From: Candidatus Saccharimonadota bacterium
GTDB taxonomy: Bacteria; Patescibacteriota; Gracilibacteria; BD1-5; UBA6164
NCBI GenBank assembly: GCA_965227835.1
Contig: OZ245768.1
Span: 870,001 to 902,000, forward strand
Direction: 5' to 3'
Length of the DNA stretch: 32,000 bases
Part shown: positions 1-31,866 of the stretch, piece by piece
How positions within the stretch are numbered: the stretch's first letter is position 1
How the letters are laid out: each line of letters opens with the position of its first letter
The notes under the pieces: model-generated
Databases searched by the model: none
Told to the model about the DNA's origin: nothing
Seen by the model: the letters and a program-made list of their open reading frames with translations, nothing else
Translations under genes and position numbers: made by a program

Positions 1-860
1 CTACCTTATTTCAATACCCATCCGTAATACTTGATAACAATATTTTAATATGTTCAAGATTTTTACAATCTACATTTTTTATACCTAAATCTAGTCTTTT
101 TATTCAGTAATATCATAAGATTTTCATTAAAGTTTTGTTATCTCTTCATCAATTTCTTTCTAAGATTGTAGATCATTTTATCATTCAAAACTCAGTTCAA
201 TATCAAAAGTTTAATTTAGAGAAATATAAAACTCAAATAGTTTTTAAATCTACTTCTACCTTATTTCAATACCCATCCGTAATACTTGATAACAATATTT
301 TAATATGTTCAAGATTTTTACAATCTACATTTTTTATACCTAAATCTAGTCTTTTTATTCATACAAGACCTAAAACTTTTTTTAAGGTTTTGATATTATT
401 TAATCAATTATTTATTAATATTGTAGATCATTTTACCACTCAAAATTCAGTTCAATATCAAAAATTTAATTTAGAAAATTTGATTAATAAAATAGTATTC
501 AAATCTACATCTATCTTATTTCAATCCTTATCTGTAATACTTGATAATAATGTTTCAATATGCTTAGAATTTTTATAATCTAATTCTTTGCTTGGTAAAT
601 CTGGTCTTAGTACTCATATGTATTCTAAAATCTTTTTTAAAGATATCTTATTTATTATTCATAAACCATTCTTTAAAATCATCCTTCATGTTACTTTTTG
701 AAAAACTGTCATGTGTCAAAAATATCAATCTATAAAAGCTTCAATTCAAACGGTTCTTAAATCAATTTTTAATTCATTTCAATATTTATCTGTAATACTT
801 GATAAAAGTATTTTTAAATGTTCAGGATTTTTATAATCCAATGAATCTGATCATTTCCGT
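1..860 (-). repeat. Tandem 255-bp (85-codon) coding repeats inside paralog A
   Basis: Positions 1-106 are base-for-base identical to 256-361. Further, more diverged units start near 511 and 770. The period is 255 bp (a multiple of 3) and the reading frame is preserved. Confidence 0.9.
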
Positions 861-1567: not shown

Positions 1568-1590
1568 TTTAAAAATGTTTTATTGTTAAT

Positions 1591-2345
1591 TTATAAATCA
1601 GGTCTTGATATTCATACACTCTCTAAGATTTTTTTTAAAGATATATTACTTCATCATCAATTATTTTTTAATAAAGATTGTCATGATAAAATTCAAAATT
1701 CTGTTCAGTATCAAAAATATATATGAGAAAAAGAATCACATCAAATAGTTTTTAAATCTAGCTCTAATTTATTTCAATCTTTATCTGTAATACTTGATAA
1801 TAATATCTTTATATGTTCAATATCTTTAAAGTTTAATTCTTCACTTGGTAAATCAGGTCTCAATATTCATACACTCTCTAAAATTCTTTTTAAAGATATA
1901 TTACTTCATCATCAATTATTTTTTAGTATTGTAGCTCATACTACAGATCAAAATATTGTTCAGTATCAAAAATATATATGAGAAAAAGAATCACATCAAA
2001 TAGTTTTTAAATCTAGCTCTAATTTATTTCAATCTCTATCTATAATACTTGATAATAGTATTATTATATGTTCAGGATTTTTATAATCTAATTTACTACT
2101 TGGTAAATCAGGTCTCGATATTCATACAATCTCTAAAACTTTTTTTAAAGATATATTATTTTGTCATCAATTATTCAATAATATTGTAGCTCATGTTACA
2201 GATCAAAATATTGTTCAATGTCAAAAATATAGAGTATGGAAGTCCCTAACTCAAATAATATTCAAATCTGCCTCTACTTTATTTCAATATTTATCTGTAA
2301 TACTCGATAATAGTATCTGGATATGTTCATCGTTTTCATAATCTA
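1591..2345 (-). repeat. Tandem 255-bp coding repeats inside paralog B
   Basis: The landmark 'aatcaggtct' recurs at 1596, 1851 and 2106, an exact 255-bp period. Long identical stretches are shared between units 1 and 2, for example gttcagtatcaaaaatatatatgagaaaaagaatcacatcaaatagtttttaaatctagctctaatttatttcaatct. Confidence 0.9.
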
Positions 2346-2575: not shown

Positions 2576-3775
2576 GTCTGTTGCGTTTTGACTTTAAAAA
2601 GAGTTTTAATTAAGAAAAGTACTAAATAGATGAAAGATTTATAAAATTCATCTATTTTTTGTTAAATTATAGCCATTTTTATATATAATTTAGGATTTTA
2701 GACGCAATCCACCTAAGGAAACTAATCTAAACTATTGGGACTTCCTCTAAAACAACTAATCTTTTGAGATTAAAAGATATAGCTTCCATAAATGCAGTAA
2801 ACTGATTTTTTACTACAGACTTATACCTCACTCTATGATTCATTTTTGAAAATACTCTCTCATAAGGAGATCTAAGTTTAGAATAAAACTTATCTTTATC
2901 CTTGTTCTTATCTTTCATATTATTTTTCTTTATTGCACATAGATGTAATCACTTCTTTTTTGTTGATATTACAGCCGGTCAAATACAATATCACTTATCA
3001 GCATATACTGCTCATGAACTTGGTAATACATGCTTCATTCACTTTGCATCTGTTACATTAGCTTGAGTTATAGCTATCTTGTTTATCATTCAAGATTGCA
3101 TATCAACACTAGCATGTTTTTTATAACCATACCAAAATTTATTTTTTCACTTAGATCAAATTTTAGCTTCCTTATCATTAGCAACTTTTGGAAGAGTTTC
3201 ATTATTCATTTTTTCATATCATTCTTTTATTCATTTATCTCTTTCTTCCCATAAATTAGCTTTAGTAACTAAATGAGAAGCATCTACAAATGTAAACACT
3301 TCACTCATATAACCCTTATTTGATAATTGATTTTTTAAATCTTCAAATATCTTTGATAGTTCATTTGTTCATATCTTTTTTCTTGCTCTTGTGAATATAC
3401 TATGATCTGGAGTTTTATCTGTTAATTTAAATCAGCAAAACCATTTACCAGCTAAATTTTCTGCAAGATATTTCTCTAACTCTCTATCTGATAGATCTTC
3501 CATAAACTGGATTAGTAAACATAGAAATAATTTTTTTACTCAATATCATACATGAGTTTTTCATAGATCTATATTTTTTAGTATTTTATTTACTCAATCA
3601 AAGTTCCACAATTTCTTAAATTTACGATATTGATGATTTTCTGGAATTAGCTCGTTTAGGATAACAAAACTTATTTGATTTGATTCTCACATAGGTATTT
3701 TCTTAGAATATAATTACTATCTAATTATATCTCTTTTTTCTCTTTTTAATAGTCAAAGTTTAATTTACAACAGGC
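2576..3775 (-). mobile_element. IS5-family insertion sequence (~1.2 kb) inserted into paralog B
   Basis: The homology between paralogs A and B breaks at ~2575 and resumes at ~3776. The ends are imperfect inverted repeats: left gtCTGTTGcgTTTTGACTtTAAAAAGAG, right (reverse complement) gcCTGTTGtaaattaaacTTTGACTatTAAAAAGAG. A single transposase ORF lies inside. Boundaries are good to a few bp only, and no target-site duplication could be identified. Confidence 0.8.
2727..3692 (-). CDS. IS5-family DDE transposase (DUF772 N-terminal region plus DDE_Tnp_1)
   Basis: With TGA=Gly the product is 321 aa: MGESNQISFVILNELIPENHQYRKFKKLWNFDG...LSDRELEKYLAENLAGKWFCGFKL...GSKGKNKFWYGYKKHASVDMQSGMINKIAITQANVTDAKG...VYADKGY...YSKLRSPYERVFSKMNHRVRYKSVVKNQFTAFMEAISFNLKRL. 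The WFCG, FGYK.H, D..SG.I, ADKGY and R..VE..F..K motifs are typical of IS5/InsH-type enzymes. Ends in TAG. Confidence 0.9.
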
Positions 3776-6094: not shown

Positions 6095-7291
6095 TTATTT
6101 TTTCAAAAATATATTTTCAAATATATTACTAAATGTAATAAATTTAATATCTAGATTAGGATATTTACTTTTAAAAATTTTATATTTGTTTTCATTTATC
6201 TGATTTTTAGAAAATTTTATTTCATATGCTTCTTTTTCATCAAGTATAAAATCAACCTCATTTTTTTGTTGGGTTCTCCAAAACTTTATAAAAAAATCAT
6301 TTCTATATTTAAACAAAAATTCTCTAAAAACTATATTTTCTAAATAAGCTCATTTATCCAACCTATCTATTATATTGCTAAAATCATTTAAAAAACAATT
6401 CCTTATTCCTAAATCATAAAAATATATTTTAGGCATTTTTGTAAGTTCTTTTCTTATATTAGTGTGAAAAGGTTTTATAAGTGATATAAAAAAACTTTTT
6501 TGCATTATATATAGATATTTTTCTACTGTTTGAAAAGATAAGTTCAATGTATTAGCAAGTTCATTTATGTTTACTAGTTCTCATGTTTGGGTTGATAAAA
6601 TCTTTAATAAATTTAAAAACTTATTTTGATTTTCAATATTAGCCTCATAGATATCTTTTTTTATATAATCAAAACAATAATCTTTTAATCTTTCTACTTT
6701 TTCTTTTTTGTCTTTAATTAGAACTATTTCAGGATATCATCAATAAGTTATATACTCTAAAAATAAATTGTATATTTCATCTCTAAACAAATCTGGTATA
6801 TTTTTACTCTCTAAACAAATTTTTTGTAGCTTAATTTCATTTTTAAATTCTAAAAACTCAAAAAAATCTAGGGTGTATATATTGAATATTTTTTTTCTTC
6901 AAACTAGGCTATCTTTAAATTTTTTATCAATATAAAAGCTACTACTTCAAGTTACAATAAGTTTTATATTATCTTTATATTCATCATAAATATATTTCAA
7001 AAAATTTGTAGGATTATCTAGATATTGTATTTCATCTATAAAAATAATTTGTTTTTCTTTGTATGAACTTCCAGTTATTTCAAAAAGTTTGTTGGGATGT
7101 TTGTTTAGCTTCTCTAAAATTAATCTGTCTTCTAAATTAAGAAAATAGGTTTTTTTATTATTCTTTGTTTGATGTTTTTCGATTGCTTTCAAAATAGTTG
7201 TTTTTCAAACTTGTCTAGCTCAAATAAGCAAAATAATAAGTTTGGAATTTAATTCCTTTTTTATTTCATTTAGGACTATTCTATTTTTCAT
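6095..7291 (-). CDS. AAA+ ATPase of the AAA_14 + DUF4143 type
   Basis: 398 aa with TGA=Gly: MKNRIVLNEIKKELNSKLIILLIGARQVGKTTILKAIEKH...IIFIDEIQYLDNPTNFLKYIYDEY...GSSSF...YGGYPE...FWRTQQKNEVDFIL. Both glycines of the Walker A GARQVGKT are TGA codons. The three standard-code ORF fragments (6095-6316, 6350-6547, 6947-7192) share one frame. Ends in TAA. Confidence 0.85.
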
Positions 7292-7883: not shown

Positions 7884-9116
7884 TTACCTAAGCCAAGCTG
7901 GATTTTGAGTTAAAGAAGAACCAAATCTTTCATTATTGTCTCAATTATCTTTAGTTTTAATATTAATTATTGGAACTCTAATATCTTTTATTTCAAAAAC
8001 AGTCTTTCTATTAACAAAATCATTATATTTACAGTCATCTTGTGGAATTTCTATATCTATATTATAAATTTCTTGTCAAAAATTAGTTTCTTCTCAATTT
8101 AAAAATTTAAAACCAAAGGCAGAATAATAATCATTACCATTAGTATAATAATAATGTACTACACCACTACAGTCTCAAACATAAGTTTGTTTTCCTTCAT
8201 TTGATATACTTTGAATATCTAAAATTCTATCATTTGTTAATTCAAATTTAAAATCTTCATCCAAATACTTAAAACCCTCTGATGTAAAATGTTGCTTAAA
8301 TTCTAAATCTTCACTATATCATATTTTAGTCCACCCCCCTCAATCAGTACTCATATCACAATAAACCTCAAATTCATCATTTCAACTAGGATTTATCTTA
8401 TAAACTCAATCTCAATTATCCAAACTAGATTCTAATATCCTCTTACAACTAGAATTATATATTGATTTTATTAATTCAATTCAACTTCAACTAATCTTAT
8501 CATTATCATCTATATGGGATATATATTCATCTGCTGTTGTAGCTATATCTAATTCTCAACTATCTCTTACATCTCAAATCTCTTGAACTGGAACATTTAA
8601 ATTATCTCAACCCCCTGTTAATATTCATAGCTTCTTTCAACTTACCTTAACTTGTCTATCTGCATAATCTATATCATTAGATAATACTTCTCCCTTAAAT
8701 AAACTTACAGTTTCATTTGTTTCTTCTAGTAATGCCATTAATTGAAAGTTCTTTCTATTGTCTGTAGCATAGTATGAAAAATATGTATTATCTAGTGGGT
8801 CTTTACCTTCTTTATCATATTTAATTTTTTTTAGTACTTCTTCTCATGCATATCCTTGATATGCTATAGTATTTCAATTAGTTTTAACTTCTATATAGTC
8901 ATCGGGTATTGGAAGTCTTCATCTTGTTAGTGATAGTTTTAGTCAATCTCATATACTTTCTAGTTGTACTGTTCTATTTGTATCTCTTACTCAAGATAGA
9001 TAGTCTGTATAGCTTACAAATCATATTGTTCAGATTATAGCTAGTATTGTTACTACTACTATTAGCTCTACTAGGGTGAATGCTTTTTTTAGTTGGAGGG
9101 TTAGTTTGTTTTTCAT
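7884..9116 (-). CDS. Type IV pilin-like protein with a C-terminal fibrinogen-like YCDxxxxGGGW domain (putative pilus-borne adhesin or lectin)
   Basis: 410 aa with TGA=Gly. The N-terminus MKNKLTLQLKKA|FTLVELIVVVTILAIIGTIGFVSY is a prepilin-type cleavage/methylation signal (F+1, E+5). The C-terminal half contains SCKRILESSLDNGDGVYKINPSGNDEFEVYCDMSTDGGGWTKI (motif at 8331-8363). This matches the fibrinogen-related-domain core C..I...G...G.Y.I.P.....F.VYCDM.TDGGGWT. Ends in TAA 7884-7886. Confidence 0.85.
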
Positions 9117-10312: not shown

Positions 10313-12073
10313 TTATGCTAAACCATCATAATAATCTAAAACTATCTTTTTTGTATAATTAATAATTTCTGATGATTGCCTAGGAGATAAATCATCAAGA
10401 TTTAAAAGAGATTTAATTTCACTCACAACCATACGAACAAAAACATCTTTATTTTCTTTGTCTACTTCTTGATTATCTTTCATAAATTCATAAATCTTAC
10501 TCTTTAAAAATCTATAAATAAATTTCTGAGAATGAGGGTAAAACAGTTTTCTATTCTTACGACTATACACTTGGATACCCTCAAAGGTATTAATAAAATC
10601 TAGTTCTTTTAAATGTTCTATATATACCTTTTCTCTTAATATATTTATATCTTCTGAACTGAATCAATAAACATTAACAAGTTTATTTTGTATCTCTCTT
10701 ATACATTGAGAATAATTTTTATTACTTTCTCCCACATCAATACTACAATAACCCACATAGTCAGAGCATAGAGAATATATTTCACTAAGTGTTGTTAGAA
10801 CTGATAAATCATTGTCTTTTAAAATATTTGGTTTATCAATTTTTGTTTTTTTAAGCCTATGTTTATTTGAATTATAAGATACTTTAAAATAAATCTTTCA
10901 TCAACTAAAAAAAGCATTTAAGGTGATATCTCATGAATCACATAGATATTGAAAAAATTCTTTAGAATGCAAAAGAGAGTTAAGATTACTTTCAAATTCA
11001 GATTTAAATACTCTTACAAGTTCTCTTGCTCATTTTTCTCTTGAATATCATAAATCTATAATATGTTTGTACAAACTATTATCTAAAGAAAGATTTACCC
11101 TAGATTCTTTATAAAACTTTTTTAAAGCATCATTAATATCTGAAACTTGAATTTCAAGTATTTTTCTACATTCGCTTAGTCAAATATTATCAAAAATTAT
11201 TACATCATCCAACCTTCAAATAAATTCAGGAGAAAATTTGGTCTTCATACTATCATTAAATATCTTCTCAGATACTGATTTTATATCTCCTACATTATCT
11301 TGAACAAATCAAATAGGAGGAGTATACAAAGATTTATTTATTTCTGATTGTCATATATTGGAAGTAAAAAAAATTATTGAGTTAGCTAAAGAAGTAGTTT
11401 TCCCTGAAGGAAAATCTATTTTACCCTCATCTATAACACTCAACAAACTTTGAATAACAACAGGACTAGCTTTTTCTATCTCATCAAAAAGTATTATATT
11501 AAAATTATCCAGCTTTTTTACACAATCATGCAAACTTCATTTTCTTTTTGCCTTTTCATAAGGTTTAAATAATTTTCTAGCAGAAAAAGGTGTATCGTCT
11601 TTATATCACACATATCCTTTGGGTGATCAAAAAACATTGGATAATGTATGATCTTCAGTATAAGTCTCACAAGCTATTTTTGTAATACTTTCCCTATCTC
11701 AAAAAATAGCTTGTGCCAAAGCTTTGGGTATTTCCGTTTTTCAAACTCATGTAGGTCAGACTAAAAATAGAACTGAAATTGGTCATCTTCTTGGTCTAAT
11801 TGATAAAATACTATTTATTATTGAATCTAGTATTTTATGTTTTGCCTCATTTTGACCAATTACAATTTTATCCAAAGAATTTAATAAGTCTATTTTATGA
11901 TGATTAATGCTAGGAGCCTCTAATATTTCATAAGCTCTTTTTTTAAATCATTTTACTGGTCTTTCTGTAGAATTTATATAACTAGATATTCTTTTTTCTA
12001 CAGGTTGAGAAGAGTCACTTGAATTAAAATCACTTACAATCTTTCTAAGATTTGATTTATCTCAACTTCACAT
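10313..12073 (-). CDS. Stand-alone ClpA/ClpB D2-like AAA+ ATPase (AAA_2) with a ~200-aa uncharacterised C-terminal extension
   Basis: 586 aa with TGA=Gly: ...LDKIVIGQNEAKHKILDSIINSILSIRPRRGPISVLFLVGPTGVGKTEIPKALAQAIFGD...GSPKGYVGY...IILFDEIEKASPVVIQSLLSVIDEGKIDFPSGKTTSLANSIIFFTSNIG...FSPEFIGRLDDVIIFDNI...GYSREKGARELVRVF. All three glycines of the Walker A GPTGVGKT are TGA. No N-domain, D1 or ClpP-loop was seen. Ends in TAA. Confidence 0.85.
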
Positions 12074-15191: not shown

Positions 15192-17204
15192 TTAAGTTAA
15201 GTTTAGTTTAGATGAAATTAGTTCTAATAATTGTTCACTTGTTTTTATAGAATCAGATATATTAATTCATTTCACTCACAAGAAATTTGTATTTCTGTCT
15301 TCAAGTATTTTTCATATTTTTTCATTGGTGTCAGTTGCTATTGCATCCCATAATCTATACCAACGATTTTTTATTTTGATTATTTCACCATATTTTTCAA
15401 ACAAACTAAATAAATTATTGAAAAAATCTCCACCTTTTTGTTTTATTATTTGAGAATTACCAAAAACATATAAATGTTCCTGTGCTCTTGAAATAGCTAC
15501 ATTAATCCTTTCTTCTTTTTCTAAAAATCCTATTTTACCATATTTATTACTCCTTGTAAGAGATAGCAAAATAACCTTTCTTTCATCTCATTGAAATGAA
15601 TCTACAGTAGCCACACATTTTAACCAATTTTCTTGGTCTCACCTAAAAAGTTTTATTTTTTTAATTTCTGATTTTATCAGACCTACCTGTGATTTATATG
15701 TCGCAATTATAGCTATATCTCAAGGTTTATAACCTTTGCTAATAAGTTGAGATAATTTTTTGCATATAAGCTGTGCCTCAAGTTTATTGCTATAGGAAGT
15801 TTGATTTCTAGTTTCCCAAATCTTATCTAACAAGGAATAATCATACCAAATAACTTCTCAATCTTTCATATATTCTCATGGTTTCATTTTTCATCCATAT
15901 GTAAGCTTTGAAACAATCTGAGTAATATTTTTAGAAGAACGATAATTAGTATCAAGAAATACATAAGGAAAAGGAGTATCTTTGATGACATTATTTTTTT
16001 TGTATTTATCAAGAACCGTAGTAAAAAAGCTATTACTTAATTTTTCTTGGTTTCTGTTAACATTACCAAGCTGTCTTGGATCTCCACAAAACACAATCTG
16101 TTTTTCAGCAAGTCATAAAGACATTATTAAATCTTCTTCATGCATTCTAGTAGCTTCATCAATAACAACTATATCAAAATTTTTTATTTGATTTATATAT
16201 CATCATAGTGTTCAAAAGGTTCATGCTACCAAGACACCTTCATTTATTTTTTTTATTTTATCATCTCTGCTTGAACTAAAAAAGTTTATTCATAATTCAT
16301 CTTGTTCCAAACTATACTTATCATCATTAAAATTTGATTTATTACTTAAGCTAGAAGGAGATAATTCATAGCGTCCATAAATTTGATCCAGCTCAGATTT
16401 TACAAAATTAATCTCTTTGGAATAGTGAGAAGATTTTCTCTGTTGAGTAGATTTAAACTCTGTTATAGGAAGTAAAGAATATGGAATTTCATTATGAGTT
16501 TTACTTGAAACTAAAACACTTTTCACATCTTCTAGTCTATCTACAATTTTATCAAGTGTTACCCATACTCATTTATTAGAATGAGATAAAAGAAGTATTC
16601 TTTTACCTTCCTTAGCATTTTTTAATAAAAATTCAGAGATTAGGCTAGACTTACCAGTTCAAGGTCATCAATGAAGAAATACAAAAGGATTATTAGTGTA
16701 ATCCTTTGAAATTGATAAAAAATCTAGTTGAGATTTGTTGAAAGATATATCCGAGTCATATGTATTAATTTCTTTTTTGAAATGTTTTGTAAAATTTCAC
16801 TTTGATAAAAATTTAAGTGGACTTCAATCAATAAATTTTGTTCTATCATATTTAGTTTTTATACCTTCTAGGTAAGGTGAATAATTTAGATTTTCTACTA
16901 AGATATAATTATTTTTAGATAAAAGTAAATCCATCCATTCATATTTATTATGAAGTGGTCAAAATATTTTAAACTCTGGTACTCCACCAAATAATAGTCC
17001 AAACATAGTAATTATGAAATATTCTCAATAATCTCATTCTGATATACAGTCGCTCATATCATTTATATCACGAAATGGTCATATTAATTCATAAGGTTCT
17101 GTATTAAGTGAAATATTATTGCATAGTCTTCTATATTGAGTTTTTACATTATCAATAATTGTTGAATCATTTTGATTTAGATTATTTATTTGATTTATAT
17201 TCAT
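15192..17204 (-). CDS. Superfamily 1B (Upf1/DNA2-like, AAA_11/AAA_12) helicase with an uncharacterised ~190-aa N-terminal region
   Basis: 670 aa with TGA=Gly. Walker A FVFLHGGPGTGKSSLI (G G P G = TGA TGA CCT TGA). Walker B / motif II FDIVVIDEATRM. ...VFCGDPRQLGNV..., ...TNYRSSKNI..., ATVDSFQGDERKVILLSLTRSNKYGKIGFLEKEERINVAISRAQEHLYVFGN. The apparent stop at 15312 is TGA; the frame continues to TAA 15192-15194. The three standard-code fragments share the frame. Confidence 0.85.
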
Positions 17205-21849: not shown

Positions 21850-22150
21850 GAAAAATTAAAATTTGACAAAGAATTAAAGCACTTTGTTGAATAAGTCAAC
21901 AAAATTTTGAAGTTCCTTACTGAATAATATCAAAAAGTGTTGAATTTCTCCGTTGATCAAATTTGGCAAAGAGCTAAAGCTCTTTACTGAAATAATATAA
22001 TAATTTTAGAATAAAATTTATTCTATTATGCTTTGCTATATAATAATATCTGTTTTATGCCCTCTCCTTTAAGGAGAGGTTTAGGGTGAGGTTTTGCTCG
22101 GAGAGGGTTAGGGTGAGAGCTTTACAGAAAGGGTTAAAATGAAATATTAA
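21850..22150 (+). repeat. Composite non-coding repeat, copy 3 (shorter), upstream of the pilin pair
   Basis: Hairpin units acaaag...ctttgt (~21876-21898) and aagagc-taaa-gctctt (21969-21984). Then the shared aaatttattctattat segment and the GC-rich hairpin ccctctcc-tttaa-ggagagg (22060-22079), followed by tttagggtgagg...ggagagggttagggtgagag. Same order and orientation as copies 1 and 2. Confidence 0.8.
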
Positions 22151-22321
22151 AAAGCTTTTAATCTTTTCCTTAAAAAAGAAAGAATGTCTAGCAGAAATTT
22201 TAAAAATATTTGATTTTTGAATATTAAAAGTCAATATATTTAGTATTTTAAGGAAAGGCTAAAGAATTCTTTAATTCTGACAAAATAATAAATTTTTTAT
22301 TTTTATAACAGTAATATTAAT

Positions 22322-22897
22322 ATGAAAATTATGAGTAAAGGTTTTACCCTGGTAGAACTTATAGTAGTTATAACTATATTAGCTATATTGGGTACTATAG
22401 CTTTTGTATCCTTACAAGGTTATTCTCAAGATGCTAAAAATTCTAAAGTTGCATCTGATATAAGAACTATAGTTACATTTATTGAAACTAAACTCACACA
22501 AGGTAAGATATATATGACAGATTTAGTTGATGATGATATTGATTTAAGTTCTACAAATAAAAATGGTATAAACACATCTGAAACTTTCGGTTCTGGTATA
22601 AAACTCTCTGATAGTACATATAAAGTTGGAGCTATAAATTTCACTTGATTAAAACAAAATGGAAATGATTTTAAAGATAGTGAAAATAATGATTATGTAG
22701 CAGCAGTAGCTATAAATGGTTCTGATAATTCTTACTATCAAATTGCTGGTCAGCAAAAAAATACAGATGCTACATACACTACAGTAGTTAAAGGTAACTA
22801 TGTACAAATCATTGATAGTGATACTGTTGGTTTAGTGTCTGAGACATCATCAAATAAGTGAGTAGTTAGTGGAGAAATAATATCTAGCTTATATTAA
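22322..22897 (+). CDS. Type IV pilin (prepilin-type N-terminal cleavage/methylation domain)
   Basis: 191 aa: MKIMSKG|FTLVELIVVITILAILGTIAFVSLQGYSQDAKNSKVASDIRTI... (G-1, F+1, E+5). The standard ORF 22322-22648 continues through TGA to TAA 22895-22897 and ends ...GEIISSLY*. Confidence 0.9.
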
Positions 22898-22910
22898 AAA
22901 AAATATAGTT

Positions 22911-23483
22911 ATGCATTTGAAAAAAAATGCTTTTAGCATAACAGAATTAATAGTTGTAATAGTAATTTTACTTATATTAAGTTCACTTTGATTTATTCAT
23001 TTAGCAGAATACTTTTGAAATGCTAAAAAATCAAAAATAATCTATGACATTAAAAGCCTTACTTCAAATACAGAAATAAAATTATCTAAATGATTTGATA
23101 TAAAAGATTTGATAATAAAAAATGAAAATAACACAAATAAAGTTTATGGTTTAGTTACTATTGGTTCAGGTAAATATATACTGGATGAATTAAAATATGA
23201 AGTGGGTAGTTTTGATTTTTCGAAACTAAAAATTAACAAAAATGATTTTTTATACGAAGATTCTTGAAAACTTAGAGAATACATTTTTGGATATGCAAAA
23301 ACTAGTAAAAAAGTTTATTACGAATTTGCATGACAAGTATTTGATTCTACTTGAAAATACGATGTTTTTGTTTCAGGTAGCTATAAAAAACTTTCAAGTA
23401 CAGATACAAAAGGACTTATAAGTGAAAATTGATATTCATCTTGATTAAAAAATTGAATGACACTCACGGGGAGTTTATATTAA
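22911..23483 (+). CDS. Type IV pilin-like protein (minor pilin/pseudopilin candidate)
   Basis: 190 aa with TGA=Gly: MHLKKNA|FSITELIVVIVILLILSSLGFIHLAEYFGNAKKSKIIYDIKSL... It ends ...TLTGSLY*, the same C-terminal SLY as the preceding pilin. It starts 13 nt after that gene. Confidence 0.8.
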
Positions 23484-23557
23484 GTAGATTCCAGAATCTA
23501 GTGATAGAAATTTTTGAAAAATTAATGTAATTTAGAACAATTGAGAAACTCTAAAAC

Positions 23558-23590
23558 AAAAACACTATTTTTTAAAAAATAGTGTTTTTT
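23558..23590. terminator. Bidirectional terminator between the convergent pilin genes and pilT
   Basis: aaaaacactatttttt/aaaaaatagtgttttt palindrome with A/T runs on both sides. Confidence 0.65.
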
Positions 23591-23618
23591 AAATATTTTT
23601 TAAAATATTAAGAGTTGG

Positions 23619-24701
23619 TTAGTACAAAGACTCTTTTATTAATTTAGGGTTATTAGCATATTTTATCCCTTCATCTTCTGTAATAAATCACATATTTATC
23701 AAATCTACTATATCTTTTTCCAATATCTGCATTCACTCTCTTGTTCACATTTGTAGTACAGAAGGTAGCTGATGAAGTTCATTTTCTCTTATCAAATTTG
23801 CCACAGCTCAACTATTTACTAGTATTTCTTTTGCCATTCTTATTCATGTACCATCCCTAGTTTTTAAAAGCCTTTGAGAAAATACAGAAACCAAAGAATC
23901 TGCCAACTGCATTCTTATCTGGCTTTTTTCTTGTCATTCAAAACTATCCATAATTCTTGTTATAGTTTGATAAGCTCATCTAGTATGTAGAGTTGAAAGG
24001 ACTAAATGTCCTGTTTCAGCTAAAGTCAAAGCTATTCTTATTTCTTCTTTTGATCTCATTTCTCCAAAAAATATAATATCAGGAGATTGCCTCATAGCTC
24101 ATACAAGTGCAGTTTCATAGTTAGGAACATCTTTTCAAATTTCTTTATGCTCTATAATGGATTTTTTATGATCATGTATGTATTCTATAGGATCTTCTAT
24201 TGTTATTATGTGTTTTTCATAATTAGAATTTATATAGTCTATAATAGCAGCCATAGTTGTAGTTTTTCACGATCAAGTAGGTCATGTAACAAGTATAATT
24301 CATTGTCATTTTTTTGTTACTTCTTTGAATATATCAGGCAGATGAAGTTTATCTAAACTAGGTATTTCTGAAGTTAAAAGCCTCAAAACTATCATATAGT
24401 TTGATAGTTGAAAACTTATATTTACTCTAAATCTCCTATTACCAAAAGTAAGAGAAAAATCTAGATTTTTACTTTTCATAAGTTCATCATGTTGTTTTTC
24501 ACTTATTATAGATTGAACAAATTCAAGTGTATCTTTCCACTTCAATTTTTCTATATTTTCATTTATAAAAATTATTTCTCATCATATTTTGACAGCTGGA
24601 TATGCTCAAACTGTTATATACATATCAGATCCCTCGTTATCAATCATAACTTGTAACAATTGATCTTTCAATATATTTTCTTCCAAGATAACTTTTTCCA
24701 T
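23619..24701 (-). CDS. pilT: Type IV pilus retraction ATPase PilT
   Basis: 360 aa with TGA=Gly: ...[20 protein letters not shown]...FRVNISFQ...[45 protein letters not shown]...[38 protein letters not shown]...[21 protein letters not shown]. The Walker A codons at 24261-24290 include three TGA. Fragment 24306-24545 is in frame. Ends in TAA. Confidence 0.9.
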
Positions 24702-24730
24702 TTTTCAAAAAATTAATTTATAAAATATAA

Positions 24731-25951
24731 CTATAAATTCTTAGCTACTTTTCACATTTCAAAGAAAGGAAGCATTATAGATATTATTATAGAACCTACC
24801 AAAAATCATACTATAACTATTATAATTGGTTCCATCATACTAGATAGGTTTCAAATATACCTTTTCAATTCCGAATTATAACTTTTTCATATTCTTTCAA
24901 GTGATTTTGATAAACTTCAAGTTTCTTCTCATGTGCTAACTACATAAGCAAATTCTTCTGTAAAAAGCTTGTTCATATAAACAGATGATTCATATTCTAA
25001 GTTTAATCACAAAGATTTAGATATAGTTAATCAAAGCTCTACTTCGTTTTTTATTCTTATTAATTCTTTTTTATAAGATAGATTTGAAACTACCTGACTA
25101 GATATTTTTAAGGATTCTAGGAGTAAAACTCAAGAATTTAAAAGTATAGTAAAACTCTTTATAAAATATACTATGTTAGATTGTTTTACTATATATCCAA
25201 AAATAGGAAGTTTTATAGCTATTTTAGAAAATATACTTTTTCAAAAATAAGTTTTATTTAATAATTTATAAATTATAAAAACAGATATTACTGTTCCTAT
25301 GATTATCAAATAATCATTTTTTAAGAAGTTTGATATATTTACTATAATTTGAGTTGGAGCAGGGAGTGCAGCTCATGCTTTTTGGAAAGAGTCTGTAACT
25401 CTTGGTACTATAAATATCATCATAAATACTACCATTGCTATAGTAAGAGTAAATAATATGGCAGGATAAACCATGGCTCATTTTACTTTTGATTTTATTT
25501 CTATACCTTCAACCATATTAGTATCAAGTTCACTTAGAATATGACCTAGTTTTCAAGTTTTTTCTCATACTTTTATAAGAGATATAGTGAGTGTATCAAA
25601 AACTTTTGGATATGATGACATAGTTTCGTTTATAGATATTCAGTGATCAATGTTGTTTTTTATTTCTTTTACTATTTTTTTTAGATAAGGATTTGTAACT
25701 TGCTTTATCAAAATATTTAATGCTCCTTTTACGTCTATTCATGAATTTAGGAATATAGAAAATTTATTTATGAATTGCCATACTTCCTTTTTTGAAACAC
25801 TATTAAACAAAGTTATCTCTATATTTGAAATTCATTTTCTATTTTTATTATCCTGATTTTGCTTTTTTCTTGCCTCAAAAAGGAGCTTAACAATCTTGTC
25901 ATTGTTGAAGTTTCAATCTTTATCAAAAAATTTTTTTCAAAATAAAGCCAT
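24731..25951 (-). CDS. pilC: Type IV pilus platform protein PilC (GspF family)
   Basis: 406 aa with TGA=Gly. Two GspF-type repeats: ...FSIFLNSGIDVKGALNILIKQVTNPYLKKIVKEIKNNIDHGISINETMSSYPKVFDTLTISLIKVGEKTGKLGHIL... and ...FTILLNSGVLLLESLKISSQVVSNLSYKKELIRIKNEVELGLTISKSL...VSTGEETGSLSKSLERIG... Hydrophobic segments are present. Ends in TAG 24731-24733. Confidence 0.85.
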
Positions 25952-25954
25952 TTT

Positions 25955-27949
25955 TTATATATTTCAATCTTTAGATATTATATTTTCCGATTCTTGTATT
26001 ACTGTTTCATAGTCTCCTTTTTTCATCAATTCTTTCATTAAATTGTATTTACTTCTTATTCTGTCTTCTTTCAAAGATATTTTATATTTTTGTTCATTTT
26101 CTATAGCCTTTTTCAGATAATAGTTTATCTTTTTATGTATATATCACTGTTTTATATATCTTTTTGCTTCACTTTTTAATTTAAGAACCTCACCTGTTAA
26201 CCATAATTGTTCAAGTTGTCTTATTATACTTTTTAAATAATTTTCAGCTTTTAGTTTTTCTAATTCTTCTTGTATTTCTTGTTTAGTATTTCATTTTATT
26301 CTTCTTATATCTCTTTTAGGTATTGAGTTTATTTCTCAAATTTGTCTTAAGAAATCTTCTTTGTCTTTTATTTTATCCTTTTCAAAATCTCTTTTTAAAA
26401 GCATTAGAGTCAAATCATCATCAAAATTTGATCATCATCTAAAATTTTTGGCATCTTTTATTATAAAATCATATATTTTCCTAATATCTTTTTCAAAATC
26501 AGCAGCTTTTTTAAAAGTTTGGGATAATCTATCTATTGAATAAAACTCTCAATCTATAGATTTAGACTCTACTATACCATCACTATAAGTAAGAAGTATG
26601 TCATCTTCTCACATATCTATAGTACTTACTTTTATATTATCTGAATCTTTTATAAGCCTTATTCAAGCGGCTAATCATCAAGGAATTATTTTTTCAACTT
26701 CTTTTTTTTCCTTCCTGTATAAAAGTATGGGTTCATGTCAAAGCCCTACAAATCTAAGCTTATTTATATCTTCTTTTACTATTTCAAAAAATATTCATGT
26801 TATAAAATTCATTGATTTTAAATCTTGTTTTAATCCATTGTTTATTTCATATATGAGTTTTTTTATTTCATACTTTTCAACAAATTTATTAAAAAGTCTG
26901 GTAAGAAGTGTTATTATAAATCATGCTTTTATTCAGTGTCATGTTGCATCTCATATAAAAAAAGTATATTTCTTGGCAAGTTCACTATATCAAAAAGTAT
27001 CACCAGATATCTTATGAGCACCCAAAATTTTACCATAGAGATCATATCATACTATATCTTTTTTTGAAATATCCTTTATTAAACCTTTATGTATATTTTC
27101 TAGTTTAGCTGAAGCTATTTGGTTTTTTACTTTATCTTCTTCTTCTATAAGAAGATTTATCTCATCTAAAAGCTTTTTCTTTTCTAGGTTTTTTTTGATT
27201 TTTTTATAAAAATTTAAACTTTCTTTGAGTTTATAGAAAATACCTTTTTTAACTTTTTTTTCTTTTTCTTTTTCTACTAAATCATTACTAACAGTTTCAC
27301 CTATTAATTTCATAGCTTCTATTTTAGCATTTTGTTTAAGCTTTTGTTCTTCGCTTTCTTTTTCTTTTTCTATTTGTTTTAATATAAATTTTTTCTCTTT
27401 GTTATAAAAATCTATCACGAGTTTATTTCAAGAGTATTCCTCTAAAAAGCTTCATAGTAATTTCACAGCATCACTTGCTTTTCATGTTTTTGCTAAATGA
27501 TGAGACTCTTGCTTAATATTTTTAAACCTAATTTCAAATCTTTGTTTTTCTATTTTATTTTGATATTTTTCTTTTTGTTTTTTGTATATTTCTGAAAGTT
27601 TTTCTATTTGGGTTTGTTTATCTTTGTATAATTTATTTAATTTTTCTTTTTGTTTCAAAATTGACTTATCTTCATTATTTTCTGACAATTTACTTAATAA
27701 ATCTTTATACGAATTTTCCTCTTTTAAATATACTTCCCTTATAGATCTTTCTGCTTTTTCCCACTCATAAGTAGCTATAAAAAACTTAATTGCCTTTATA
27801 GCCTCTTTATAATTTTTTATATTTTGAGTTTTTATACCTTTATTCTCGGTTTTTCAAAAAGTACTAGAAAAAAATCCTTTTTTGTTTTGCTTTTTCTTAA
27901 TTTCTATTTTTCCTTGTATTTTCATTTCATTTTTTACTTGTTCAACCAT
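25955..27949 (-). CDS. PP2C-type (SpoIIE/RsbU-like) protein phosphatase domain protein with long Lys/Glu-rich coiled-coil-like flanks
   Basis: 664 aa with TGA=Gly; fragments 27047-27418 and 27482-27688 are in frame. The central region reads ...ISGDTFGYSELAKKYTFFIGDATGHGIKAGFIITLL...MNFITGIFFEIVKEDINKLRFVGLGHEPILLYRKE...IPGGLAAGI...MGEDDILLTYSDGIVESKS...FRGGSNFDDDLTLMLLKR. This matches the SpoIIE/PPM signature (GD.F..., DA.GHG..A, G...P.L, SDG..E, DD.T). The start is 4 nt after the pilB stop and the stop is 3 nt before the pilC start. Confidence 0.75.
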
Positions 27950-27953
27950 ATTT

Positions 27954-29192
27954 TTATATTAATTTAAATGCTTCTTCCATAGTTGTTTCTCATAATAAAG
28001 CTTTTAATAAAGCATCTTGTACTATTGTTATCATTCAGTTTTTAATTGCTTCATCTTTCATTTCATTGTCTGAAGATTCTTCTAATATTAAAGGTTCTAA
28101 ATATTCTTCAACTATTAAAACTTCATGTATTCAAAGTCTTCATTTATAACCTGTGTTATTACATTTATCACATCAAGTTCAATGATAAAATTGCATATTT
28201 TTTAAACTTTCTTCGTCTAGGATATCTTTTAAAAATTCATGTGCTTTTTTCATATCTGAATCTCTAGGGGTATATTTTTCTTTGCAGTTATCACAGATCT
28301 TCTTTCATAGTCTTTGGGATATTACCATTTTCATAGCCGAACTTATCAAAAATGGTTCTATTCACATATTTATAAGTCTTCAAATAGTTCAGGGAGCAGA
28401 GTTTGTATGTATAGTAGATAAAACTAAATGTCCTGTAAGAGCTGCTTCTACTGCTAGAGTAGCTGTTTCTTTATCTCTTATTTCTCATACCATTATAATA
28501 TCTGGATCTTGCCTAAGGAGTGTCCTAAGTCATGATCAAAATGTATACCCTATTTCAGGTTTTACTTGGGATTGATTTACATATTCTATATCATATTCTA
28601 TAGGATCTTCCAATGTAGAGATATTGTATTCTAGAGGATTATAGTTTTTTAATATTCAAAAAAGTGTAGTTGTTTTTCAAGATCATGTAGGACCAGAAAT
28701 AAGTATTATTCAATATTTACTTTTTAATGCTTGTTTTACCCTTTTTAAATTTACATCTATTAATCCTAAAGCTTCTATGTTTGTAAGACTAGAATCTTGT
28801 TTTAATATTCTCATCACAACTTTTTCTCAGTATTTTGTAGGTAGAGTAGAAAATCTTATATCAACATTTTGTTTTTCAATTTCATGACTATATACCAATT
28901 TTCAATCTTGGGGTTTTTTGTTTTCGTCTATTTTTACTTTTGCAAGTACTTTTAATCTAGTTGTAATTGCTGATGTATTAGAATTATCCACTTTATCATA
29001 TACAAAAAAATCTCAATCTTTTCTAAATCTAATCATTATAAAACTCTCATTTGGTTCTATATGTATATCTGAAGCATTATATGATATAGCGGCTTTAAAA
29101 ATGTTATCTATGTAGTTAACTACATCTCATAATTCCTTTTTTATGGAAATGGAATCAAGTTCCTTTGTATTTTTTAGATTTGTTTGTTCCAT
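27954..29192 (-). CDS. pilB: Type IV pilus assembly ATPase PilB (GspE family)
   Basis: 412 aa with TGA=Gly: ...[23 protein letters not shown]...PQDGKL...[21 protein letters not shown]...[22 protein letters not shown]...[10 protein letters not shown]...[62 protein letters not shown]... and the tetracysteine CDNC...[19 protein letters not shown]. Ends in TAA 27954-27956. Confidence 0.9.
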
Positions 29193-29385
29193 TGATTTTT
29201 TATTAGAAATTTATTTACCAAAAATTAAGGGAAGTCTAGAAAAAATAATTTAAATGAAAAATAAATACTTTTTCACTATTTTCCTTAAATTTAATTTTAA
29301 CATATGTTTTTATAAAATTTAAATTTTATACATTTACAAACAATGTTTTTTTGTGTTTTAGATATATTTTGAAGGTTTAAAACAT

Positions 29386-29418
29386 AAAAAAAAGTAATGC
29401 TTCGCATTACTTTTTTTT
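29386..29418 (-). terminator. Rho-independent terminator directly after the 29420-30580 gene
   Basis: gtaatgc-ttc-gcattac flanked by an A-run (29386-93) and a T-run (29411-18). On the minus strand the hairpin is followed by T8. Confidence 0.7.
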
Positions 29419-29419
29419 G

Positions 29420-30580
29420 TTAATTATTTTGATTTATTATGTAGTTTTTCAGTTTATTTATCTTTTCATTTTTTATTTCTTGTTCTATAAAATTATTAAA
29501 ATCTTCTATAGTTTCATACTCTTTACCTTTATATAATATAGTTTCTTTTCAGTCTAAAGTTTTTAACTCATAATCTATAGTAAAAGTTCATCTTTTTATG
29601 GTATTTGTTATTATTTCCTCTATATTTTCTTCCATAATATTTTCAATATAGGTTTCTCCTATACTACTTACCTCTTCAAAATCAATATTTTCATCCTGTT
29701 TTAATATCTGTTCTATTTCTGTATCTTCTACAACTTCTTCTTGTGTGTTTTTATTTTCTTCAAAAACTTGATTTTCATTAAAGTCTATATTTTCTTCAAT
29801 ATTTTCGCTTTGTGAAGAATTTTCATCATCTTTTAAAATGCTATCTTTTAAATCATTTTCAGACACACATTTCTTTGAGTCTATCAAACATTCAAAATCT
29901 TTTTTTGCTTCTAATAAGTTATTTTTGTAATTATCTAAATTGTGTATATCAGGTTTAGTAAAAAAGAATATAGCTATTCAAATAACACTGAATAATACGA
30001 AACTTAGGAAAAAAAACATTTTGGATCATCATTTTTCATTATTTTTAGATTTTTCTTGTTCTAATGAATCCTCTTTTTTCTCAGAATTAAAATCAGATTT
30101 ATAGTTTACAAATAAATCTTTTTCTTCTTCAAGTAAATTTTCTTCTTTTTTTTCAATATCAAGTTTATCACTTTTAATATTTGATTCTTCTTTTTCTAAA
30201 ATTTCAGAATTAGTTAAATGAATTTCTTCTTTCTTTTCAAAATCAATTTTATCATTTTTAATATTTGGGATTTGATTATCTTTTATTTCTGAAGTATTAT
30301 GTTTTGGTAAAGCTATACCATTTTGTGTTTGATTAATTTTAGTTTCTTGTTTCGATGATAAATCTGATTCTATATTTGATGTTTCTTGTATTTTTTGCTC
30401 TGTTTTATTTTCCAAAGATTGTGATGATATATTTGGTAAATTTGAATTTTCATTTTCTTTTAAATTACTTTCATTTTGTACTTTTATAGCATCTGTTTTA
30501 TTTTCTTCATCTTTTTTTCAAACATCTTTGCTCTTTTTTATAGAGGATATATTTAGTTTAAATCATTTTCCTTCTGCCAT
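29420..30580 (-). CDS. Hypothetical acidic single-pass membrane protein (low-complexity E/K/N-rich regions on both sides of one TM helix)
   Basis: 386 aa with TGA=Gly. Fragments 30029-30415 and 29588-29887 share one frame and are joined by ...KNNEKGGSKMFFFLSFVLFSVIGIAIFFFTKPD... (the TM segment). Starts MAEGKGFKLNISSIKKSKD. Ends ...NKLKNYIINQNN* (TAA 29420-29422). Confidence 0.65.
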
Positions 30581-30649
30581 CTTTTGTTTGATAAAATATT
30601 AAATACATTGTTATGATATAATATTTTGAGATTTTAGTCAAAATTTAGC

Positions 30650-30790
30650 TTTTCAAATTACAAAAAAGATTTGACTTTTTATTTTTTATTTGCAAAATCC
30701 ATTTTAATGTTTTTCTAAATTTACTAAAAGAGGAGGATAAAATGAAAACATTGAAAAATATATTTCTTACTTCAATACTACTAATCTTTA
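30650..30790 (+). repeat. Cassette 5' module, copy 1 (promoter-like region, 5'UTR with AGGAGG, and the first ~45 nt of the CDS encoding most of the signal peptide)
   Basis: From TTGACT at 30671 through the first ~45 nt of the CDS, the sequence is identical to 31337 onward and, as far as the window goes, to 31939 onward. Confidence 0.85.
30671..30698 (+). promoter_or_regulatory. Candidate promoter of the secreted-protein cassette (repeated at 31337 and 31939)
   Basis: TTGACT (30671-76), 16-nt spacer, CAAAAT (30693-98). A strong Shine-Dalgarno AGGAGG lies at 30731-36, 5 nt before ATG 30742. Confidence 0.4.
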
Positions 30791-31212
30791 GCCTAAATGC
30801 TAATGCTTCGGTAAATGATTATATTATTTCATCTTTGAAAAGCTATAGCTGGTATGAAAAGTTGGAAAATTATGGCAGAAAAAATAATGGAGAAAGAAAA
30901 CTAGACTACTATATACGATTAAGTATCGTAAGATATCTTGAAGATATAGGTCTATATAATGCAGGAGACACAAAAAATTGTAATGATAGCTCTCGTAATA
31001 GTGTAGAAACTGATACATGTTATAAAGGTACTCTACAGCAAAATATGAATCTATCTAAAACTTTAAAAAATCCAGAAGTGCAAGATATTTTGGGTAAAGT
31101 AAGCTTTTACACAATAGTTAGTATTCAGGAAGGAGTGATGTTAGAACATATTTTAAGCAGACAACAGTTTGCAAGTTCTAACCGTTATAGTTATGTGATT
31201 GGACCTTATTAG
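30742..31212 (+). CDS. Small secreted two-cysteine protein, cassette paralog 1
   Basis: 156 aa, no internal TGA. Signal peptide MKTLKNIFLTSILLIFSLNANA|SVND. Shares the core LDY.IRL.I..YLE..GLY.AG.T.NC.D...(9-10)..DTCY.GT..QN.NL..TLK with paralog 2. Ends in TAG. Confidence 0.8.
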   Translation: MKTLKNIFLTSILLIFSLNANASVNDYIISSLKSYSWYEKLENYGRKNNGERKLDYYIRLSIVRYLEDIGLYNAGDTKNCNDSSRNSVETDTCYKGTLQQNMNLSKTLKNPEVQDILGKVSFYTIVSIQEGVMLEHILSRQQFASSNRYSYVIGPY

Positions 31213-31283: not shown

Positions 31284-31316
31284 AAAACCGGTGAGCGAGG
31301 CTCACCGGTTTTTTAA
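31284..31316 (+). terminator. Rho-independent terminator of cassette 1
   Basis: aaaaaccggtgagc-gag-gctcaccggtttttt: GC-rich 9-bp stem plus T-run. Confidence 0.8.
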
Positions 31317-31407
31317 AAAAGAGTTTAAAAAAAGGTTTGACTTTTTATTTTTTATTTGCAAAATCCATTTTAATGTTTTTCTAAATTTACTAAAAGAGGA
31401 GGATAAA

Positions 31408-31866
31408 ATGAAAACATTGAAAAATATATTTCTTACTTCAATAATACTAACCTTTAGCCTAAATGCTAGTGCTTCAGTAAATGATGAAATGATTTCGTTG
31501 CTGAAAAAATATAAATGGTATGAAGATTTAAAAAGTTTTGAGAGAAATGTAAGTAAAATGAGTTTAGATTACCACATAAGGTTACGTATTGCAAAGTATC
31601 TTGAAAATGTAGGTTTATACGATGCGGGAAATACAGAAAATTGTACTGATACTGATAAACTTCCCTATCATAACAAAAAGATTGATACATGCTATACAGG
31701 AACCCCTGAACAAAACATTAATCTATTGAATACCTTGAAAGAAGCAGAAGTAAAGAAAAATTTGAGGCAAGTAGATGCTTACACCATAATAAATGGTGTT
31801 AATAATATATTCTTAGAAGATATGGAAAATAAAACATGGACTCAAATACAGCTAAAATGAAATTAG
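31408..31866 (+). CDS. Small secreted two-cysteine protein, cassette paralog 2
   Basis: 152 aa: MKTLKNIFLTSIILTFSLNASA|SVNDEMISLLKKYKWYEDLK...NCTDTDKLPYHNKKIDTCYTGTPEQNINLLNTLK...TQIQLKGN*. It reads through TGA at 31858 to TAG 31864-66. The ATG is preceded by AGGAGG. The upstream GTG (31291) used by the ORF track lies in the terminator hairpin and is rejected. Confidence 0.8.

Follow-up and report, generated by a model that had tools for sequence, protein, structure and literature searches.

What is a protein phosphatase doing between the motor and the platform protein of a type IV pilus? The question is raised by a stretch of 32,000 nucleotides (nt) from a bacterium of the Gracilibacteria (contig OZ245768.1, positions 870,001 to 902,000; "the window" below), where a gene that we call X, encoding a phosphatase of the SpoIIE type, lies on the minus strand in the order pilB-X-pilC-pilT. 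Gracilibacteria and their relatives are tiny, host-dependent and mostly uncultivated. For host attachment and DNA uptake, these ultra-small bacteria are thought to rely mainly on type IV pili. An earlier reading of the same DNA, made from the letters alone (the sequence-only reading), had taken the position of X to suggest phospho-regulation of the pilus motor or platform. Our analysis indicates that X belongs to the PPM/SpoIIE family, that its place between pilB and pilC is kept across the Gracilibacteria, and that in a sister lineage the X and PilC proteins are fused into one chain. We propose that X is probably an active phosphatase docked on PilC.

The window is read with genetic code 25

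The window has a G+C content of about 25%. We rejected the standard bacterial code (table 11), under which the region falls into short open reading frames (ORFs), in favor of code 25, under which the frames are long. In a direct translation of the minus strand, the in-frame "stops" of pilB, X, pilC and pilT are all TGA, and these codons sit where glycine is expected, as in the Walker A motif of both ATPases (GPT*S*KTT, an asterisk standing for TGA) and in the phosphatase motif of X (FI*DAT*H*IKA*). Internal TGA codons number 17-23 per gene (23 in X), GGN codons are few, and all four genes terminate at TAA or TAG. Because TGA stands in frame at glycine positions and the genes end in the other two stop codons, we conclude that the window uses code 25 (UGA=Gly), which is the code of Gracilibacteria and Absconditabacteria (PMC11452946). 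This assumption is essential to everything that follows, since no reading of UGA other than Gly leaves the X frame of 664 amino acids (aa) intact. Many database copies of X-family proteins carry Trp at UGA, from the wrong code, or are fragmented. The copy of the window's own X (P0001) is such a UGA=Trp mistranslation, and the error garbles the motifs, turning GDATGHG into WDATWHW.

Under code 25, the gene order and coordinates of the sequence-only reading are exact (Table 1), as are its spacers of 4 nt between pilB and X, 3 nt between X and pilC, and 29 nt between pilC and pilT. Its further claim that X is co-transcribed with its neighbors is consistent with the 4- and 3-nt gaps and with our scan of positions 22000-31000 for consensus terminators, where the sole site was a hairpin upstream of pilB and none fell within pilB-X-pilC-pilT. 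This hairpin likely marks the 5' boundary of the unit.

X is a SpoIIE-type phosphatase with an intact active site

A PPM/SpoIIE signature had been read from four short motifs in the 664-aa product, all of which are present. The Pfam SpoIIE family (PF07228) matches X at E=4.5e-34 (118.5 bits against a cutoff of 25) over aa 326-520, which covers positions 3-191 of the 192 in the profile. The metal-binding aspartates, whose loss would have told against the assignment, are D317 (in SGD), D334 (GDATGHG), D457 (SDG) and D511/D512 (DDD); they are invariant in 31 aligned homologs. In this alignment conservation runs along the whole of X. The four metal-site motifs also line up with SpoIIE structures in a profile alignment to the PDB, and the aspartates are kept both in stand-alone relatives about 32% identical to X and in the fusions described below.

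For the structure we used a correctly translated homolog that is 56% identical to X (P0016). Its AlphaFold model, with a mean predicted local distance difference test score (pLDDT) of 77, shows a helical N-terminal domain (residues 12-185), a disordered linker, a helix of about 45 residues leading into a PPM sandwich (264-491), and a C-terminal helical domain (503-631, pLDDT 80-92). Foldseek matched this model to the RsbU domain of Rv1364c (1.7e-11), SpoIIE (4.7e-11), SiaA (5.6e-10) and RsbX (1e-9), and the PPM domain of Pseudomonas aeruginosa RssB was also among the matches, all of them confined to the PPM core. By profile, motifs and fold alike, X is a bona fide member of the PPM/SpoIIE family.

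What of the regions on either side of the core? The sequence-only reading had described them as Lys/Glu-rich, coiled-coil-like and free of transmembrane (TM) segments. The composition stands, with 37% and 31% Lys plus Glu in the two flanks, and so does the lack of a TM segment, the highest 19-residue Kyte-Doolittle mean being 1.12 in X versus 3.08 in PilC. The coiled coils do not stand as such: the flanks are predicted to be folded helical domains. The N-terminal one is lineage-specific. A search of PDB sequences with the X family profile found the PPM core only and nothing for the domains on either side of it, Pfam run permissively (E<=5) on these N- and C-terminal regions gave nothing credible, and NCBIfam has no model for X. 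Modeled alone, the C-terminal domain reaches a pLDDT above 90, and it has no significant fold neighbor in the PDB (best E about 5, with vague TPR-like matches). It is also the most conserved part of X. In 57 orthologs re-translated with code 25, mean column conservation is 0.75 in the C-terminal domain, 0.66 in the PPM core and 0.52 in the N-terminal domain, with 0.78 for PilB and 0.77 for PilC.

The order pilB-X-pilC is conserved across genomes

The sequence-only reading had made its case depend on the gene being present in the pilus operons of close relatives. We sampled one genome per species (GTDB), giving 59 loci from Gracilibacteria-type genomes, called ORFs with code 25 and compared them by BLAST with the window proteins. 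The result is uniform: pilB is the immediate upstream neighbor of X, on the same strand, in 58/58 loci that reach that far, with a median gap of 13 nt; on the downstream side the immediate neighbor is pilC in 55/55, with a median gap of 20 nt. Across these loci identity to the window proteins is 43-70% for X, 63-84% for PilB and 58-83% for PilC. In the relatives pilT follows pilC directly or comes after a pilin gene on the opposite strand; the same-strand arrangement of the window is common to L007, L014, L042, L049 and L066.

Among 5.8 billion proteins we found more than 200 full-length X homologs of about 630-640 aa, with 45-67% identity at about 95% coverage. All those that carry an organism name are labeled Gracilibacteria, and their pipeline names ("PP2C family", "SpoIIE family", "RsbU (regulator of sigma subunit)") mask what we take to be a pilus-specific family. 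When 1.84 billion cluster representatives were searched exhaustively with a profile, only 97 proteins came up at E<=1e-30, so the family is small and restricted to this lineage. The deepest stand-alone members, about 32% identical to X, keep the order pilB-X-pilC (L065, L066), and in L066 the genes pilB-X-pilC-pilT encode 412, 656, 406 and 362 aa, sizes nearly identical to those in the window. One protein from the profile search (P0121, 1108 aa) is the X architecture repeated whole in tandem, so that a single chain has two PPM cores and two C-terminal domains.

X and PilC are fused in a sister lineage

Also among the results of the exhaustive search are proteins of about 1,020-1,120 aa whose match to X extends past the catalytic core. 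All of those tested (9/9, about 1,050-1,120 aa) have the SpoIIE domain in the N-terminal half and two T2SSF repeats, that is, a complete PilC, in the C-terminal half. One of them (PCI25394.1) comes from a Candidatus Peregrinibacteria bacterium, and others are labeled Peregrinibacteria or, by JGI, "PulF / RsbU". In three Peregrinibacteria-type loci the fusion gene comes right after a short pilB (394-396 aa), with a gap of 0-38 nt. A fusion from a code-25 lineage (P0147) is a continuous ORF: it contains 52 TGA codons, is free of internal TAA and TAG, and terminates at TAA. Its alignment with X starts at residue 182 and reaches the X C-terminus, and PilC begins about 45 residues later. The fusions keep the metal-site motifs, the C-terminal helical domain is kept at least in P0179 and P0147, and the domain order, X and then PilC, is the gene order of the window. 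A long T2SSF protein (P0273) that we considered as a related architecture was rejected, as it matches the fusions only via PilC.

Fusions of this kind are classic "Rosetta-stone" evidence, here suggesting that X and PilC act together: because the two are one chain in sister lineages, X appears to be functionally tied to PilC. The fused chain also places the conserved C-terminal domain of X beside the cytoplasmic N-terminus of PilC. Of the phospho-regulation first suggested for this locus, the link to the platform is thus strengthened, while the relation of enzyme to substrate stays conjectural.

Could X nevertheless be an RsbU-like phosphatase of general stress or partner switching that sits in the pilus locus by chance? 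In favor of this are the labels that databases give, "RsbU (regulator of sigma subunit)" among them, and the fact that no partner genes were identified. Against it stand the strict adjacency on both sides over deep divergence, the spacers of 3-4 nt in the window, the PilC fusion in two lineages and the small, lineage-restricted family. We give a chance neighborhood hardly any weight, and synteny and fusion together effectively exclude it.

A proposed mechanism and what weighs against it

How could a phosphatase in this place act on the pilus? Taking together the enzyme family, the active site, the synteny and the fusion, we infer a docking site, a substrate and a direction of control, as follows. 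X would be a catalytically competent, Mn2+/Mg2+-dependent Ser/Thr phosphatase of the SpoIIE/RsbU type. As a cytoplasmic subunit or regulator it would be dedicated to the type IV pilus assembly platform of the Gracilibacteria-Peregrinibacteria group. Through its C-terminal domain it would dock onto PilC, at the base of the machine and thus at the place where the hexamers of PilB and PilT engage. The helical N-terminal domain and the pre-catalytic helix may together turn the PPM core on and off, as a regulatory module of the RsbU kind. X would then strip phosphate from Ser or Thr, the candidates being the cytoplasmic domain of PilC, the short PilB, PilT, and the acidic bitopic protein encoded upstream of pilB. 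Dephosphorylation would gate pilus extension versus retraction, and an opposing kinase would be encoded elsewhere in the genome. We put at about 0.55 the probability that X, docked on PilC via its C-terminal domain, is active as a PPM phosphatase and gates extension and retraction by dephosphorylating a pilus component.

Several points weigh against this proposal. The binding of X to PilC is suggested by fusion and synteny only. PPM-like domains can be non-catalytic adaptors, as in RssB of Escherichia coli. Some PPM-fold enzymes act on substrates other than phosphoproteins, and the phosphocholine hydrolase Lem3 is in our Foldseek list. The data would fit information flowing either way between phosphatase and machine. 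Moreover, the partner kinase or STAS-like substrate that the sequence-only reading had proposed to look for did not turn up: a rough, motifs-only screen of code-25 ORFs within ±10 kb of the 59 loci gave no Hanks or GHKL kinase and no convincing STAS protein. The sole STAS-like motif in this screen was in a 558-aa protein at one locus. Clustering the neighboring ORFs and running Pfam on representatives gave FtsA/FtsZ, ribosomal and other housekeeping genes, and no signaling partner. Since neither a STAS protein nor an RsbW-type kinase lies nearby, X does not have the neighborhood of an RsbU/RsbV/RsbW-type partner-switching module.

The oral Gracilibacterium GN02-872 carries a second SpoIIE-type phosphatase (L033, 15832-17040, minus strand), which is membrane-anchored, 402 aa long and 29% identical to X. 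Genomes of this kind therefore carry more than one PPM phosphatase. The gene lies a few kb from the pilus locus and adjoins a VirB4-like ATPase, and it is uninformative for X.

If information flowed from machine to phosphatase, X would be a reporter. Pilus activity would control the PilC-tethered X, which would dephosphorylate a downstream signaling protein and so set off a program of attachment or predation; the trigger might be surface or host contact, retraction load, or occupancy of the platform by PilB or PilT. The picture recalls SpoIIE itself, a phosphatase tethered at the division septum that links a morphological event with the activation of sigma-F. The PilC fusion, the synteny and an RsbU/SpoIIE-type core behind a long helix fit this account equally. 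Enzymes of this type, moreover, usually target soluble switch proteins and not machines, and phosphorylation of a machine component remains conjecture. On the other hand, the rough screen of 59 genomes turned up no gene for a STAS or anti-sigma-type substrate at the locus or close to it, genomes as reduced as these are believed to hold few regulatory circuits, and none of our results separates a reporter from direct regulation of the machine. We regard a reporter role as possible and rather unlikely.

A bolder version would make of the pilus platform and an X docked on or fused to PilC a mechano-chemical switch of a kind not known before. Engagement of host or prey would alter the state of PilC, PilB and PilT, this would flip X allosterically, and through dephosphorylation the cell would become committed to attachment, DNA uptake or predation; X would replace inputs of the PilM/N/O and cyclic di-GMP (c-di-GMP) types in this branch of the Candidate Phyla Radiation, and its C-terminal domain would be a new PilC-binding module. 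This is speculative, and we hold it at slightly lower confidence still.

The pilus locus and a possible structural role

We return to direct gating of the machine by X and to the genes beside it. The window PilB is a short form without the N-terminal domain of about 165 aa (GSPII/MshEN-type) of canonical PilB/GspE: it covers only positions 167-559 of the 564-position NCBIfam PilB model (TIGR02538), scores 454 bits, under the equivalog cutoff of 675.65, and has no Pfam match to T2SSE_N. PilT scores 403 bits against a cutoff of 319 for the NCBIfam PilT/PilU family. The PilM, PilN, PilO and PilD families gave no match among the scanned window ORFs and the conserved neighbors, as the sequence-only reading had remarked for pilM/N/O and pilD in the window; the actin-like gene nearby is FtsA, adjoining FtsZ. 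Pilin genes, which lie beyond pilT in the window, flank the pilus locus in most relatives.

The acidic protein encoded upstream of pilB has no Pfam match. It begins with the motif K-[IL]-[ND]-L-[SKN]-A-[LMI], in its core form K-[IL]-N-L-S-A-[LM], and its positional counterparts (L001-L059) carry the same N-terminal motif in most loci, the remainder of the protein being fast-evolving. The motif resembles the "INLLP" peptide by which PilN docks PilM; no PilM was found in the locus. The protein may be an accessory pilus part, PilN-like in layout, whose partner could be X or PilB.

Because PilB is short and the locus has no pilM/N/O, our analysis suggests that X supplies the regulatory or scaffolding input given in other bacteria by the PilB N-terminal domain and PilM/N/O. 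Taken to its limit, this would make X a scaffold that replaces those parts and bridges PilC, PilB or PilT and the upstream bitopic protein, its PPM fold serving for binding and not for catalysis, as in pseudo-phosphatases of the RssB type. Such a role would fit the missing PilB domain, the absence of pilM/N/O from the locus, the docking-type peptide conserved at the N-terminus of the upstream protein, the RssB PPM domains among the fold matches, and the better conservation of the non-catalytic C-terminal domain (0.75 vs 0.66 in the core). The active site argues otherwise, however: pseudo-phosphatases typically lose metal-site residues, whereas X relatives keep all five metal-binding Asp and the GDxxGHG motif down to about 27-33% identity, the fusions included, which fits an active enzyme. 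A purely structural X is, in our judgment, improbable, and we retain the reading of X as an active phosphatase on PilC.

Other features of the window

Coordinates of the features are collected in Table 1.

Table 1. Genes and other features of the window, and domains of the X protein (aa positions refer to X)
Feature	Position	Strand	Description
IS-type DDE transposase	2727-3692	-	DUF772/DDE_Tnp_1
AAA_14/DUF4143 ATPase	6095-7291	-	
Pilin-like protein	7884-9116	-	410 aa, N-terminal methylation motif, C-terminal COLFI 2.3e-11, Fibrinogen_C 2.9e-7
ClpB-like AAA_2 protein	10313-12073	-	Long unannotated C-terminal half
Superfamily-1 helicase	15192-17204	-	AAA_11/AAA_12
Two pilin genes	22322-23483	+	191 and 190 aa, Pfam N_methyl 5e-7 and 5e-3; convergent with pilT
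pilT	23619-24701	-	360 aa, retraction ATPase, T2SSE match; last gene of the putative pilB-X-pilC-pilT unit
pilC	24731-25951	-	406 aa, polytopic platform protein, Pfam T2SSF 2.3e-49, two repeats
X	25955-27949	-	664 aa, soluble PPM/SpoIIE-family phosphatase, code-25 ORF, Pfam SpoIIE
X, variable N-terminal tail	aa 1-39		
X, helical N-terminal domain	aa ~40-215		
X, low-confidence linker			Between helical N-terminal domain and pre-catalytic helix
X, long pre-catalytic helix	aa ~246-295		
X, PPM core	aa ~296-522		
X, C-terminal helical domain	aa ~561-664		Highly conserved
pilB	27954-29192	-	412 aa, short-form extension ATPase, Pfam T2SSE 7e-120
Terminator-like hairpin	29384-29420	both	Bidirectional, between upstream membrane-protein gene and pilB; pattern match only
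Gene upstream of pilB	29420-30580	-	386 aa, acidic, low-complexity, single TM segment at ~aa 189-207
Small secreted protein, first of two adjacent paralogs	30742-31212	+	156 aa, Cys-containing
Small secreted protein, second of two adjacent paralogs	31291-31866	+	191 aa, Cys-containing

The C-terminal domain of the large pilin-like protein matches fibrillar-collagen C-terminal and fibrinogen C-terminal globular domains, and the protein could be an adhesive tip or a minor pilin; similar large pilin-like genes lie near the pilus locus in many relatives. The two small secreted paralogs at the right end have near-identical signal peptides (MKTLKNIFLTSI...), and the first, the only one of the pair scanned, has no Pfam match. 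A gene of the AAA_14/DUF4143 kind also lies just upstream of pilB in a Peregrinibacteria locus (L061). At the left end, ORFs 135-578 (+), 1583-2086 (+) and 1591-2265 (-) have peptide stretches in common, for example "IQNSVQYQK..." and the C-terminal "...ILDNN.SIC.EFL"; because they share these stretches, the DNA at about 100-2300, near the transposase gene, may be repeated.

Implications

Whether an arrangement such as this one had been described was a question that the sequence-only reading had left aside. In our literature searches (SpoIIE or PP2C with PilB, PilC and type IV pili; pili of Gracilibacteria and Peregrinibacteria) it was not described, and the genome papers on Gracilibacteria and Vampirococcus do not mention a phosphatase in the pilus cluster. 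What is new is that an enzyme family already known is associated with the pilus platform across a whole lineage, apparently by physical coupling, and carries two uncharacterized domains.

An X gene fixed in the pilB-pilC unit, and fused to PilC in the sister lineage, would imply control by Ser/Thr phosphorylation at the pilus platform, for which our literature search found no description in any type IV pilus. The proposal offers testable targets: metal-site mutants of X, the putative PilC-binding C-terminal domain, and the kinase with its phosphosites. For structural work on a phosphatase-platform complex, the natural fusion could be used as a single chain.

Comparison with known systems

The nearest relatives in sequence and fold are RsbU, RsbP and SpoIIE of Bacillus and the RsbU domain of Rv1364c. 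They share with X the family PF07228, the fold and the metal-site motifs, and their layout, an N-terminal regulatory domain and a long helix before the PPM core, recurs in X with a putative regulatory domain; SpoIIE, like X as we propose it, is tethered to a morphogenetic machine. However, outside the core, in its N- and C-terminal domains, X shows no similarity that we could detect to RsbU_N, PAS or the SpoIIE regulatory regions, there is no STAS substrate or GHKL kinase nearby, and X associates with PilC and not with a sigma-factor cascade.

Phosphatases of the SpoIIE/RsbU type have been repurposed for surface behavior or secretion in SiaA-SiaB-SiaC and HsbR-HsbA of Pseudomonas and in BtrU-BtrV-BtrW of the Bordetella type III secretion system. 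Unlike X, these systems use soluble partner-switch proteins encoded alongside, and we know of no synteny or fusion that would link any of them to the platform protein of a type IV pilus.

Within type IV pili, the proposed X would resemble PilM, PilZ-FimX, the MshEN c-di-GMP domain of PilB/MshE, and SgmX, which gate extension from the cytoplasm, at the interface of PilB and PilC. X is found in a setting that lacks PilM and the PilB N-terminal domain. None of these factors is a PPM enzyme, and they share neither sequence nor fold with X. Ser/Thr phosphorylation does control a type IV filament system in the archaellum of Sulfolobus, through ArnA/ArnB, ArnC/ArnD and phosphatases of the PP2A and PTP kinds. 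That control, in contrast, acts mainly on transcriptional regulators of the archaellum operon, and the phosphatases are of other families, encoded outside the operon and unfused.

More generally, we know of no analogue, whether SpoIIE-type or a PP2C in a secretion cluster, that involves a type IV pilus platform protein. In the H1 type VI secretion system of P. aeruginosa, PppA, PpkA and Fha1 form a threonine phosphorylation pathway, in which a PP2C-type phosphatase from the gene cluster of a membrane nanomachine exerts post-translational control over assembly of that machine. The cluster holds a kinase and an FHA substrate, neither of which was found in the X locus, and PppA is a small stand-alone PP2C without flanking domains of the X type and is, to our knowledge, never fused to a core subunit. 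Even so, PppA-PpkA-Fha1 is the closest functional analogy to the mechanism that we propose for X.

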